From Candidatus Thorarchaeota archaeon (GTDB lineage: Archaea; Asgardarchaeota; Thorarchaeia; Thorarchaeales; Thorarchaeaceae), in contig PRDI01000114.1 in NCBI GenBank assembly GCA_003345595.1, forward strand, positions 1 through 35,933: a DNA stretch of 35,933 nt, read 5' to 3'. The notes beneath the pieces were generated by a model. The model was given only the letters and a program-made list of their open reading frames with translations, did not search any database and was not told the origin of the DNA. Made by a program: the position numbers and the translations under genes. Shown in pieces: positions 916-6,461 of this stretch; within the stretch, counting starts at the first letter, position 1, and each line of letters starts with the position of its first letter.

Positions 916-2484
916 CTAGCACTCAGTCATGTCGAAGTCTGTCTGCGATTCTCTTGCCTTGGCAACCGCTGGAAACTCCTTCTCGAACCGCTTCCGAACA
1001 CTGTCTGCGATGTCTGGATCCGAGTAGACCCTCACAGAGGGTATCGTGAACCGCTGCTGACTCAGCGCCTGCACAAGCGGCTTTCCTTCATCGGCGTCCT
1101 TCAGGCTCACAATTTCAAGTTTCGAGTCCTCGCCACCTATGAGTAGTGGGATTGTGGACAGGAATCTAAAACCAAGCTCCGGGTTGACGATGTCTATGAT
1201 TGCCTTGCCCGGGATGTCATTCAGTTGGAGTTCGGCCTCAAGCAGTTTGTTGATGTCGACCTGCATCTCCTGCAGCCGCTTTCTAGAGCCCGCCTCAAAC
1301 GCGGCGATAGGCCGTGATATTGCCACCTTGAACAGCCGTCGGTACCTAATCCTTGCAGCATACTCACGGACAAAATCTGTCTTTGACTCTGCGAGCCAAC
1401 GATAGAGGTCCCCGTCCGTCATTCTGGTGAATAGGCCGATGCACTCATTCTTGGTTAGGGCTTCTTCCTTCATTCTAAAGTAGGTGGCCTTTGACGTGAG
1501 TGCCTCGGCAACCCTCACCGCGTGGTGCAGATACAAATCCGAGAACATCCAGTTACGACTTAGAATCAACGCCTCAAGAGAATGGAGCGCTTTCAGCATG
1601 AAGGCCCTGATGTATCGACCTTCTGAGTCCTTTACGACACGGTTTGTCAACATCACACGTTCAGCGGGGAACACTCCGAGCTGGACACCACTGAAATGCG
1701 CATCACGAATCAGGTAGTCCGTCTTGTCCAAGTCCAGAGGAGAATCCAAGAAGTCTGAAAGGAGCTGCAGGATTGGGTCAGTTGACCTCCGTTTCAGAAC
1801 GTCAACGACCACCTTTGGCTCAATGCCGCTTGCCTCCAAGATCTCGGTCAAGCCGCTATGCATGATGAGAAACTGGCCCAAGTCCGTATGGCTCAGCCCG
1901 GCCCAGCACTTGATGGGAAACTCAATCGTATGAGAAGTCGGCGGATGCCCCACATCATGCAGTAAGGCGGCTGCTCTGAAGATCTTCTGTTGATAGTCAT
2001 TGAGCAGTTCCGAAAAAGGCTTGAAGCAAGCGTGGCCAGGGTCATCACAGTAGTTGACGACACGGATGCATTTCTGGACCAAGTGATCTGTTCCTAGGCA
2101 GTGCTCAAACCTAGTATGCGTTGCACCGGGATAGACTATGTGTGCAGGGCCCAGCTGCTTGACAAACCGGAGCCTGAGCATCTCCCAACTGGATACAAGG
2201 TCGAGCTCCCAAGGGTCGAGGAGTATTGCGCCATGAACAGGGTCTTGAATCGCCTTCTGACGCGTGTGCCTGTCACCAATAGCCACCAGACGCGCATGTT
2301 CTGCGAGCATCCCATTGACTCTTCGCCATGTTTCATCCTTCTTCTGACTGGCACGAGCAAGTTCAGACTCACGCATCCCGGTCAAACGAATGAGTCGTAC
2401 CATCTCCGTGTCCACATTATCGTACACGGATGCCTCGTTCTCGGAGCATCTCCTCTTGTTCGCGAGCATGGACCTGAAACCCAC
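916..2484 (-). CDS. HD-domain phosphohydrolase, SAMHD1/COG1078-like (putative dNTP triphosphohydrolase)
   Basis: Motifs DPVHG, RLRFVKQLG, VYPGATHTRFEHCLG, ALLHDVGHPPTSH, DLDKTDYLIRD and LYLHHAVRVAE. About 75 aa N-terminal extension; start codon uncertain. Confidence 0.9.
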   Translation of the reverse strand: MGFRSMLANKRRCSENEASVYDNVDTEMVRLIRLTGMRESELARASQKKDETWRRVNGMLAEHARLVAIGDRHTRQKAIQDPVHGAILLDPWELDLVSSWEMLRLRFVKQLGPAHIVYPGATHTRFEHCLGTDHLVQKCIRVVNYCDDPGHACFKPFSELLNDYQQKIFRAAALLHDVGHPPTSHTIEFPIKCWAGLSHTDLGQFLIMHSGLTEILEASGIEPKVVVDVLKRRSTDPILQLLSDFLDSPLDLDKTDYLIRDAHFSGVQLGVFPAERVMLTNRVVKDSEGRYIRAFMLKALHSLEALILSRNWMFSDLYLHHAVRVAEALTSKATYFRMKEEALTKNECIGLFTRMTDGDLYRWLAESKTDFVREYAARIRYRRLFKVAISRPIAAFEAGSRKRLQEMQVDINKLLEAELQLNDIPGKAIIDIVNPELGFRFLSTIPLLIGGEDSKLEIVSLKDADEGKPLVQALSQQRFTIPSVRVYSDPDIADSVRKRFEKEFPAVAKARESQTDFDMTEC

Positions 2485-2507: not shown

Positions 2508-3092
2508 TTAAGGAGTGATGGAGCGAGGCCGGCCTGTGCCTGGTCGGAGTGCCCGAGAGAGTTTGACTCTCTCACGCGCAATAATGTACTGGAGAGGATT
2601 GGCGTTGTTGTCCGGAATGTGACGACAGTACTCGTCTGGTACACAATACCCCCATTGAGCCATCATCCGGCAGGACGAGGCTCTCCGCCTCCTGTAGAAA
2701 GGCGCCTCGATTAGGTCCGCGCTGGTAAGAAAGCTGGCAACTGTTCTGATGCTGTTCTTCCGAAGTGCAAGTCTGATGCAGGGAGGAGACCGGTCATCAA
2801 CAACAGCTTTGGCCTTTGAGAAAAGATGCGACCAAAGCAGACAGTTCTTTGCCTTATACAGTGACTCGCATCTGTCACAGTATCCTCCATGGATCGACAC
2901 TCGACAGAGATCGTTTCTCGTGTCCTTGGTCAACCCTGACTGCTTTAGAAGATGGAACTTGACTTCCGCAAACCACTCAGGTGTAAATGACCGGAAGTCA
3001 TCTATGAACGAGTGCAGCTCTCTTGCCACCCCCTCAGGGCTTTCATTCCAATCGCTGTAACTCAGAAACCTGGGAGCCTCCTGCTCGTTCAT
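2508..3092 (-). CDS. Small Cys-rich protein with a PriL C-terminal [4Fe-4S]-like motif
   Basis: PPCIRLALRK...VASFL...SSCRMMAQWGYCVPDEYCRHI...NPLQY resembles the archaeal PriL CTD (PPCxxxxL..., C...CxPDxxCxxIxNPLxY). GGAG lies upstream of the ATG, and the gap to the HD gene is 23 nt. Confidence 0.65.
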   Translation of the reverse strand: MNEQEAPRFLSYSDWNESPEGVARELHSFIDDFRSFTPEWFAEVKFHLLKQSGLTKDTRNDLCRVSIHGGYCDRCESLYKAKNCLLWSHLFSKAKAVVDDRSPPCIRLALRKNSIRTVASFLTSADLIEAPFYRRRRASSCRMMAQWGYCVPDEYCRHIPDNNANPLQYIIARERVKLSRALRPGTGRPRSITP

Positions 3093-3264
3093 ATCGGACT
3101 CCAGTTATTGTAGTCAACTCTCTGTCTTAAGCTCATCAGTTGACACATGGATTCCCAATGACCAACTGGCAGGTTCCACTGATGCTCATTGGAACAAGTC
3201 TTAAATGATGTCACTGCCCTTCACCCATTCTACCGCAGCCCGCAGCCTGAGAGGTTGTCACCAG

Positions 3265-4272
3265 ATGAATCTCGGGGTGATTTCAGACTTCATATTCAAG
3301 GAGGCCATAACGTCCTTGGAGGTGGCAACCATCGATGACAGTGACCGATGCAATCTTGTACTCTCTACAATAGAAGGAGACGTAAGGATACTGAAACTTG
3401 AGTCAGGTAAGAAGATGAAGCTGACCCAGGTGGCAAAGGCAAGTGGTCTTCCTCCTGTTCTAACCCTCGCAATCGGCAGTGTCATGGGCGGCGATATGCC
3501 AGACCTTGTCGTTGGAGGCCTCGACAACACCATTCGTGTTATTTCCCTCTCGGACGGGAGTCTTACGGTCAAGGACACCACTCAGCTGGGTACGCTTCCG
3601 ACAGCAGTCTGTGTGACGAATGTCGTTGGTGATGAGGCTTCAGAAATCGTTGTTGCGACTAATGATCGAGCACTGAGATGCTACGGCTGGTTTGATGTAT
3701 GCTTGGACAAACTGGCTCACAAGGTTGTGGACAGACCTGTATTCTCAATGCAGCCTCTGAGAAGCAAGGATTTGCCATATAGTAGATTGGTTTTCGGGGA
3801 CGACTCAGGCCATCTGTATGTCTATCAGTATGCTGACGACAGACTTCATGAAATATCGAGAATGGGTCTTGGCGGGGACGTACATCTAGTGGCAACCGGA
3901 AACATCACGGGCGGCAGGAGTGACAATATCATCACTGTTTCTGATGGCGTCAACCTCAGTCTGCTTGCGATTGGCCAAAATGGTCTAGAGGTTCGTGCCG
4001 GTATGAAGGCCCCTTCACCTATTACTTCAGTGAGAATAGGCCGACTCCACAAGGACTCTGAGCAGGCACACATCATGGTAGGTCTGGGCGACTCCACAGT
4101 GATTCTTCTGTCTTATGACGGGCATCAACTTGTTCAGGACGCATCGATCAAGACGAATAAGAAGAGGTCTGCCGAGTCTCTGGCGGCGTTTGGCGATTTG
4201 AACGGAGATGGTGAAGCCGAGATCGTGCAGGCTGTAGGCAACACCATCAGCTTGATCACTGCGACGAAGTAG
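3265..4272 (+). CDS. Seven-bladed beta-propeller with FG-GAP-like repeats (ITFG2/BBS2-like), no signal peptide
   Basis: Seven ~45-50 aa repeats, for example LAIGSVMGGDMPDLVVGGLDNTIRV, VCVTNVVGDEASEIVVATNDRALRCY and AAFGDLNGDGEAEIVQA. ATG at 3265 follows GAGG; the ORF track start at 3205 overlaps the TATA-like box. Confidence 0.8.
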   Translation: MNLGVISDFIFKEAITSLEVATIDDSDRCNLVLSTIEGDVRILKLESGKKMKLTQVAKASGLPPVLTLAIGSVMGGDMPDLVVGGLDNTIRVISLSDGSLTVKDTTQLGTLPTAVCVTNVVGDEASEIVVATNDRALRCYGWFDVCLDKLAHKVVDRPVFSMQPLRSKDLPYSRLVFGDDSGHLYVYQYADDRLHEISRMGLGGDVHLVATGNITGGRSDNIITVSDGVNLSLLAIGQNGLEVRAGMKAPSPITSVRIGRLHKDSEQAHIMVGLGDSTVILLSYDGHQLVQDASIKTNKKRSAESLAAFGDLNGDGEAEIVQAVGNTISLITATK

Positions 4273-5413: not shown

Positions 5414-6461
5414 GATTCGAGCCCATCCCGTAGACGCTCGGTCCAAACACGACCGAGTCTTTAACCTGAGTGTTGTGAGCCAATGACGCCTTGGCAGACA
5501 GCACCGATCTCTCCACCGAACACCGTTCGCCCACTTGAGAACCTGCGTCCATAGTCACGAAGGGACCTATGATGGCATTCTTGCCCACCCGACATCGTGG
5601 TGAAATGAGAACTGGACCCACAATTTCAGCCCCCGCATCCAGCACAATGGTCTGTTTGTGGCGCATTTGCCGTCCGGCAGTAAGGCGTGACCCGTGAGGC
5701 ACCAGCAATTGGCTACCGGAGCCGACGGCCATCTTCTGCAGGAGATAGTGGTTTGCGCTCAACAACGACGAGATGTCGTCAACATCGAACCATTCTTGTT
5801 CTGTCATGACGTAACGTAAAATCAAGCCATCCGAGATCATGCTGTTTATGACAGGCGGGATGCTGGTCACTCCAAGGGACAGCGCGTTTCTGCAGATTTC
5901 ACCAAAGGGCCTGCTGACAGCTAACAGCATGGCACTACAGCCAATCGTTCCGGATGGCAGAATCTGCTCGCCAATTCCAGCAATCTGTCCATTCTCTTGG
6001 GCATAAACAGGTGTACCTGATTCCTTCCAGGGACCCAGTAGCAAAGTCATCGCACGCGAATTGGGCTCGCGAAGGTGGTCCGTCACGGTTCTGGATATTG
6101 ACGCGGGCTCAACGACATAGTCAACCGCGGAAACCACGTAGGCTTCATCCTCTACCTCTGACAATGCAGTCACTAGTGTCTGAAGAGGCCCGCGAGAGTA
6201 GTCTGGGACGTCAACAGTCTGTATTCTGTTGGTACCGGACAAGCTCTCAAGATGCTCTCGGACCATCTCGCCCTTCCAGCCAATGCCGACTGTGAAACTG
6301 GTCACCCCAGCAGCATGGAATGAGGAGATGAGTCTCTCGATTAACGTCTTGCCTGCGGCAGGAAGCATCGCCTTCGGCACTGTGTCGGTGAGAGGCTTCA
6401 TCCTCGTTCCTCTGCCAGCAGCTAATATCACTGCACGGATGGAGATTCCTCCTTTTGACAA
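5400..6461 (-). CDS. Sugar-phosphate nucleotidyltransferase with C-terminal left-handed beta-helix
   Basis: AVILAAGRGTRMKPLTDTVPKAML, WFDVD, and hexapeptide repeats (IVGPVLISPRCRVGKNAIIGPFVTM). Likely TTG start at 6461. Confidence 0.88.
   Translation of the reverse strand: MSKGGISIRAVILAAGRGTRMKPLTDTVPKAMLPAAGKTLIERLISSFHAAGVTSFTVGIGWKGEMVREHLESLSGTNRIQTVDVPDYSRGPLQTLVTALSEVEDEAYVVSAVDYVVEPASISRTVTDHLREPNSRAMTLLLGPWKESGTPVYAQENGQIAGIGEQILPSGTIGCSAMLLAVSRPFGEICRNALSLGVTSIPPVINSMISDGLILRYVMTEQEWFDVDDISSLLSANHYLLQKMAVGSGSQLLVPHGSRLTAGRQMRHKQTIVLDAGAEIVGPVLISPRCRVGKNAIIGPFVTMDAGSQVGERCSVERSVLSAKASLAHNTQVKDSVVFGPSVYGMGSNHVAE

Follow-up and report, generated by a model that had tools for sequence, protein, structure and literature searches.

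A predicted metal-binding protein family of Asgard archaea with a truncated PriL-like C-terminal domain

The gene and its family

This article deals with a small gene and its product, the protein P0001, in the DNA of a Candidatus Thorarchaeota archaeon. The stretch analysed, here called the window, comprises 35,933 nucleotides (positions 1-35,933 of contig PRDI01000114.1, assembly GCA_003345595.1). [quoted passage not shown] The features are compiled in Table 1. The C-terminal pattern starts with RSPPC105, which after 35 residues is followed by SSC141, x8, C150, VPDEY-C156 and, finally, NPLQY169. As read directly on the nucleotide sequence, the codons of C105 and C156 occupy positions 2778-2780 and 2625-2627, respectively. 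Both Cys sets and the PPC...NPLQY pattern, as described in the original prediction, are indeed present on an uninterrupted open reading frame (ORF). Two nested small ORFs, 2749-3060 (+) and 2711-2890 (-), found no support. An internal duplication, considered for CRVSIHGGYC and CRMMAQWGYC, was rejected, because the hhalign comparison of the two halves of the protein yielded 0.2%.

Table 1. Position of the P0001 gene and of its parts in the window
Feature	Position	Strand	Remark
Whole ORF, P0001	2508..3092	-	194 amino acids (aa), intact, ATG start, stop codon 2508-2510
N-terminal helical module, residues ~13-97	2802..3056	-	motif W..[ST].E...F.P.WF.E.KFHLL, then four-Cys set
First four-Cys set, C63-x8-C72-x2-C75-x8-C84	2841..2906	-	putative metal site, Zn or Fe-S
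Truncated PriL-CTD-like domain, residues ~98-185	2538..2801	-	homology by profile alignment
Second four-Cys set, C105 (PPC), C141, C150, C156	2625..2780	-	in register with PriL's four [4Fe-4S] ligands
NPLQY motif, residues 165-169	2586..2600	-	counterpart of PriL HPLxY; Y169 invariant

The gene is not an orphan. A word-indexed protein search yielded 23 homologues of 178-233 aa, none of them with a Pfam domain; those named by their source are Thorarchaeota proteins. In an alignment of 24 close homologues all eight Cys residues, the PPC, W147, P152 and Y169 are invariant. Running phmmer exhaustively over 1.8 billion representatives added distant full-length members (156-236 aa) and also returned three low-complexity repeat proteins (P0026, P0029 and P0033) that we regard as spurious. 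When 34 sequences are compared, the most distant at 22% identity, invariance still holds for the eight Cys, P38, P103, A109 and Y169. The Cys residues of the original prediction are, thus, conserved throughout the homologues.

By a profile search of the phylum, a gene of about 180 aa was found in 88 of 301 Asgard genomes, essentially as a single copy. Carriers are 73 of the 76 genomes of Thorarchaeaceae, the window's own family (f1; Thorarchaeota), all sampled genomes of two Jordarchaeia/Freyarchaeota families (5/5 in f7, 6/6 in f19) and the only genome of a Baldrarchaeia family (f8, 1/1), the taxa being assigned via source names. The gene was not found in the remaining Asgard families searched, e.g., f9 (0/68), f5 (0/28) and f12 (0/19). 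In a Jordarchaeal genome that is 95% complete (G006; C1:799253-799737, locus L046), the N-terminal part of the gene is interrupted by in-frame stops and the C-terminal half is still open; possibly this copy is a pseudogene, or else the assembly is in error.

Longer or fused forms of 414-2000 aa were not seen in the alignment search, which is weak evidence; the all-length phmmer scan revealed only two fusions, of about 700 aa, which share just the N-terminal 100 residues with P0001. Source annotations of family members always read "hypothetical protein". P0001 has no match in Pfam, NCBIfam, PHROGs or PADLOC, and neither the whole protein nor the alignment of close homologues found a match among the PDB sequences by phmmer and hmmsearch. 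A full-text literature search retrieved no paper describing the family, and a 2025 preprint on Asgard primases does not mention it. Since no library model matches and every source says hypothetical, the suspicion that the family is an undescribed one stands as far as checked.

The C-terminal half and the PriL C-terminal domain

Two types of Asgard PriL exist: a long eukaryote-like one, in which extra residues are inserted between Cys3 and Cys4, and a short archaeal one; the mentioned preprint agrees with this division. When the profile of residues 95-194 was compared with nine short-type Asgard PriL-CTDs, hhalign returned 93.5% (E 2.2e-7, 92 columns), and 92.1% (E 6.1e-7) was obtained with a full-length PriL profile. 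In both alignments PPC falls on PPC, C141, C150 and C156 fall on Cys2, Cys3 and Cys4, and NPLxY falls on HPLxY; C105, C141, C150 and C156 pair with C249, C321, C330 and C342 of the PriL of the same genome. The real score was 46.8, as compared with 11.8 +/- 2.6 (maximum 22.9) for 150 column-shuffled PriL profiles and 10.9 for the reversed profile. The spacing Cys2-x8-Cys3-x5-Cys4 is identical in the P0001 family and in Jordarchaeal PriL. A hmmsearch of the entire PDB (177,635 sequences) with the profile of the C-terminal half ranked the PriL of P. abyssi (9f26_B) first, with two collinear stretches, the PPC and the block from Cys2 to NPLxY; with a non-significant E of 0.059, this match is weak on its own.

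With the PriL-CTD in general (PF04104; human p58C, 5dqo; P. abyssi, 9f26_B), P0001 shares the order of the Cys residues, the PPC at Cys1, the terminal [H/N]PLxY helix and the helix after the PPC, where R/K-T-V-x-x-[FY]-L stands against R-F-T-L-x-x-F-L. By profile comparison, therefore, the C-terminal half is homologous to the [4Fe-4S] CTD of short archaeal-type Asgard PriL, and the likeness noticed in the original prediction has survived the shuffle control. The hhalign alignment reaches only PriL 241-356, which means that the N-terminal, PriS-binding domain of PriL is absent from P0001. In its place P0001 has an unrelated N-terminal domain with four Cys (N-terminal half against PriL-CTD: hhalign 2%).

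Predicted structures are compatible with this ancestry. The first AlphaFold2 (AF2) model, built from the 24 close homologues, was poor, with a predicted local distance difference test (pLDDT) of 68.7; with 34 sequences the pLDDT rose to 87.7 and the predicted template-modelling score (pTM) was 0.74. In an ESM-Atlas shape search the top two matches were archaeal PriL clusters, which cover residues 97-184 with 86 aligned residues and a root-mean-square deviation (rmsd) of 3.4-3.5. Human p58C is a weak VIA match to the AF2 model; PriX is not among the VIA matches listed, which does not exclude a similarity. An Atlas feature search gave no usable match. The fold evidence is supportive but weak. 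It is chiefly the profile comparison, together with the register of the motifs, that carries the claim of homology. The predicted complex of PriS, PriL and P0001 scored 0.49, 0.00 and 0.00, which speaks neither for nor against binding.

P0001 is not an ordinary PriL, as had been surmised. Its segment between Cys1 and Cys2 is shortened to 35 residues versus 71 in the PriL of its own genome (C249 to C321). About 38 PriL residues are without counterpart in the alignments, and H265, R268, R301, Q303 and H306 fall in the gaps. In the PriL of the carriers, H265, R268, R301-Y302-Q303 and H306 are kept together with all four Cys residues. In the PriL-CTD the cluster lies between two helical subdomains of unequal size, and PriX and PriCT match the larger one (Kazlauskas 2018, PMC5862659); this PriX-like subdomain serves PriL as its initiation site (Bell 2019, PMC6393858; Kazlauskas 2018, PMC5862659). 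As the sequences stand, the P0001 family keeps the cluster ligands lost by PriX and loses the nucleotide-binding part kept by PriX. With the residues of the nucleotide site gone, P0001 should neither prime nor present the first nucleoside triphosphate (NTP), i.e., it would not be an initiation site.

A complete primase is at hand in any case. The genome of the window encodes a full-length PriL of 380 aa on another contig (PF04104, 93 bits), as the original prediction had wished to see confirmed, and a PF04104 PriL was found in all 61 genomes sampled, carriers included. The P0001 family is, accordingly, neither a fragment nor a replacement of PriL. The PriS of the same genome (L080:817-2292 (+), contig C49) is about 492 aa long as compared with about 415-420 aa in Jordarchaeia and Baldrarchaeia. 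Its extra length comprises Cys-rich insertions with several CxxC pairs; by eye, the gene is flanked by a PCNA-like gene and an ORF of 254 aa. The genes priL and priS adjoin in Jordarchaeal and Baldrarchaeal genomes and lie on separate contigs in the window's genome.

The N-terminal module and the genomic neighbourhood

The original prediction had seen in the N-terminal half a further four-Cys cluster. The four Cys are there as described, but they belong to more than a second cluster: judged from where related sequences occur, the N-terminal ~100 residues form a domain in its own right, which is mobile and distributed independently of the rest. Its fold looks weakly winged-helix-like. The first four-Cys set is retained in helicase-fused and stand-alone forms. 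The module heads two P-loop proteins, 712 and 740 aa long (P0031 and P0035), which are without match in Pfam, NCBIfam, PHROGs and PADLOC; loci of this type are L005:7422-9644 (+), L006:3387-5609 (+) and L004:117-2255 (+). Their contigs contain ribbon-helix-helix (RHH), ParB-HTH (helix-turn-helix) and AAA genes along with many co-directional uncharacterised ORFs. They look like uncharacterised Asgard plasmids or viruses, and the proteins look like replicative ones.

A related arrangement is found in a Thorarchaeal genome (G055, contig C27, L048:4992-6803 (+)), where a 604-aa D5_N / DUF5906 / Pox_D5 helicase, labelled "P4-family primase C-terminal" (TIGR01613), begins with a Cys-poor version of the module in its first ~45 residues (BLASTP against P0031: 42% over 36 aa, E 4e-7). 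The locus is probably an integrated mobile element. Stand-alone ORFs of the module, about 105-114 aa long, occur in all three genomes sampled of family f13 (e.g., L047:4992-5306 (-) and L049:4899-5240 (+)); the third copy (G012) is broken by three stops. By eye, the genes found in synteny with the f13 ORFs encode a small Arf/MglA-like GTPase and a membrane protein of the polytopic kind. In front of a D5_N / superfamily 3 (SF3) helicase the module occupies the slot that PriCT-1 or PriCT-2 takes in the order archaeo-eukaryotic primase (AEP)-PriCT-D5_N-helicase (PMC5862659). The likeness is positional only, however, as P0001, P0031 and P0035 have no Pfam PriCT match (PF08708 / PF08707).

In Thorarchaeaceae the order of genes is a divergent BBS-like beta-propeller gene, the P0001 gene, a co-directional HD / HD_assoc_2 gene and, beyond, a convergent RNase III gene. 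The beta-propeller protein (window 3205-4272 (+)) is cytosolic, with weak BBS2/BBS7 and FG-GAP matches; its gene is the divergent neighbour in nearly all Thorarchaeaceae loci inspected and not in the other classes. The HD gene (window 916-2484 (-), 522 aa) lies 23 nt downstream of the P0001 gene. This long paralogue is peculiar to Thorarchaeaceae, 56-67% identical within this family and with a single 33% match elsewhere. It exists alongside the general HD paralogue (about 430 aa), which is present in most Asgard genomes, and its first ~75 residues match none of the general one.

Elsewhere the neighbours differ. In the Baldrarchaeal genome G007 an 868-aa DEAD / Helicase_C / MrfA-Zn-binding helicase gene (L038:2285-4888 (-)) is co-directional with the family gene, which lies 77 nt upstream, and an AP_endonuc_2 (xylose isomerase-like TIM-barrel) gene (5518-6363 (+)) is divergent from it. 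This neighbourhood has a flavour of DNA repair, in one lineage only. In one Jordarchaeal family the neighbours are a flavin adenine dinucleotide (FAD) oxidoreductase gene and a CdvA-like gene, in the other a glycoside hydrolase gene and a geranylgeranyl-reductase-like gene.

Possible functions

Taken together, P0001 is probably a two-domain metal-binding accessory protein, the representative of a family that is confined to Thorarchaeia, Jordarchaeia (Freyarchaeota) and Baldrarchaeia and that has derived its C-terminal domain from the PriL-CTD. PriL itself is a different protein: P0001 does not match the Pfam model and has neither the N-terminal domain nor the subdomain with the nucleotide site. 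The C-terminal domain would have descended from the [4Fe-4S] CTD of a short archaeal-type PriL; it has retained the four ligands, the PPC helix, the amphipathic helix next to it and the small C-terminal subdomain that ends in [H/N]PLxY. Some 38 residues have gone from the larger helical subdomain, the part that holds the site of the initiating nucleotide in PriL and PriX. Most likely, C105, C141, C150 and C156 would bind a [4Fe-4S] cluster by which the two short helical parts are stapled to each other, as they are in PriL, and the Fe-S domain could then serve as a structural or redox-sensitive part that contacts nucleic acid. The N-terminal module, being the same as that in front of P4/D5-type helicases of Asgard mobile elements, probably binds DNA or a component of the replisome. 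P0001 is, thus, a candidate accessory protein of replication or repair beside the normal primase.

Several observations weigh against this view. BLASTP of P0001 against the PriL of its own genome gave nothing significant, and PriL residues 1-240 are likewise dissimilar; PF04104 remained unmatched by hmmscan against Pfam even at E up to 10; and a mixed PriL-CTD alignment that included the long eukaryote-like type lowered the hhalign result to only 63%. Foldseek against the PDB came back empty with either AF2 model, as it did for the better model against the viral library BFVD (for this model, E up to 0.001 in both libraries). Four Cys residues can, of course, also bind Zn. The Jordarchaeal copy with in-frame stops would imply that the gene is dispensable at least in that genome. 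Finally, no conserved operon partner was seen outside Thorarchaeaceae in the Jordarchaeal and Baldrarchaeal loci inspected; with no partner shared, only the ancestry of the C-terminal half and the fusions of the N-terminal module to helicases tie the family to replication.

Variable genomic context would also fit a transcription regulator that depends on a metal (Zn or Fe-S) and has no link to replication, in which the winged-helix-like N-terminal module binds a promoter and the Cys sets act as structural elements or redox sensors. Regulators of this kind, small, rich in Cys and with Fe-S, are well established as a class. P0001, however, matches no HTH family of Pfam, the other carriers of its N-terminal module are replicative helicases of the P4/D5 type, and its C-terminal half stems from a primase; we therefore hold a regulator for unlikely. 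Our doubts are somewhat stronger when it comes to a third subunit that, like PriX, is stably bound to PriS or PriL. The Sulfolobales do provide the precedent of a PriL-CTD-related protein made from a separate gene and tethered via the Fe-S domain of PriL (PMC6393858); the C-terminal half of P0001 has the right ancestry, and complete PriS and PriL co-exist with the family gene. Yet the helical subdomain that binds the nucleotide, the functional part of PriX, is exactly what P0001 lost, the PriL of the carriers retains all its own conserved CTD residues, and the gene is unlinked to priS and priL in every lineage examined, even where these two adjoin.

The neighbouring gene suggests something else again: P0001 might be a partner or regulator of a SAMHD1-like HD protein (of the dNTP triphosphohydrolase type) in a module of nucleotide control or defence. 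The HD gene follows immediately and in the same direction, it does so in 26 of the 30 Thorarchaeaceae loci inspected, and it is the long paralogue found in this family only. The neighbourhood within Thorarchaeaceae is wholly syntenic, though, and the adjacency there is therefore not independent evidence. Four genomes of this family (G290, G197, G027 and G016, 88-99% complete) have kept the P0001 gene, but their assemblies lack the long HD paralogue; carriers among Jordarchaeia and Baldrarchaeia have no HD gene within 5 kb; P0001 has no defence match in PADLOC, and the HD protein has a marginal dGTPase match only. Because of the four genomes without the paralogue and the other neighbours in the other classes, the pairing is a local arrangement at most, and a functional partnership appears quite improbable. 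A decayed fragment or pseudogene of priL, finally, might be suspected in view of the short length and the lack of the PriL N-terminal domain and of part of the CTD. This idea is refuted by the conservation data and deserves practically no credence: an essentially single-copy, intact ORF of conserved length (about 170-195 aa), with invariant residues and a separate conserved N-terminal domain, is maintained in 88 genomes of three classes, next to an intact priL elsewhere. The respective worry of the original prediction is thereby settled.

Within the preferred reading, i.e., an accessory protein of replication or repair, a more specific scenario can be drawn, to which we ourselves assign a low probability. 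The N-terminal module would dock on a core component of the replisome (primase, MCM or RPA) and bring a redox-active [4Fe-4S] sensor, the reduced PriL-CTD, to the fork; Asgard mobile elements would have added the module to their P4/D5-type helicases and so taken over this contact with the host. If true, the family would be a new lineage-specific subunit of the replisome. It and PriX would then be reciprocal outcomes of a duplicated PriL-CTD, with the cluster kept without the nucleotide site in one case and the converse in the other.

The known systems put this into perspective. PriX of the Sulfolobales (PDB 4wyh / 5of3) is, like P0001, a separate small protein related to the PriL-CTD that is encoded beside PriL (PMC6393858, PMC5862659). 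It differs in being cluster-free and having the nucleotide-binding subdomain, whereas what the P0001 family has preserved is the small subdomain along with the ligands of the cluster; the Arg of PriX that binds the 5'-triphosphate (R72 in S. solfataricus) belongs to a subdomain whose PriL counterpart is deleted in P0001. PolpTN2 of the Thermococcus plasmid pTN2, which combines AEP, PriCT-1, a PriL-like Fe-S domain and a winged helix, shows a comparable pairing of domains in one chain, the module of P0001 being weakly winged-helix-like, and a link to mobile elements (PMC5862659). There, however, the catalytic AEP is fused and the winged helix is C-terminal, while P0001 has no catalytic domain, has its helical module at the N terminus and is chromosomal and vertically conserved. 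From PriL, P0001 also differs in being encoded in addition to a complete one. The second match of the Atlas search was a cluster of stand-alone PriL-CTDs from Thermoplasmatota (~201 aa, 265 members, 100% PF04104; 86 residues, rmsd 3.5, TM 0.34 by target). PF04104 recognises them, and by appearance they are whole CTDs; the P0001 family is truncated and has an extra N-terminal domain. Judging from this cluster, PriL-CTDs encoded by separate genes may be commoner than the literature suggests.

What the cluster of PriL is good for has remained a matter of dispute. Work on P. abyssi PriL calls its function debated, and the Sulfolobus primase is reported to prime without a [4Fe-4S] cluster (PMC5700102). 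The organisms considered here are uncultured, and the function of P0001 is inferred. Still, a single-copy gene for the cluster core without the nucleotide-binding subdomain has been conserved in three classes of Asgard archaea. This hints at a function of the cluster module itself on which selection can act, and the P0001 family offers a small and tractable object for testing what the cluster does. The family represents a second, independent duplication of the PriL-CTD besides PriX, and its N-terminal module links cellular replication proteins with those of mobile elements in the archaeal lineage that is closest to the eukaryotes.
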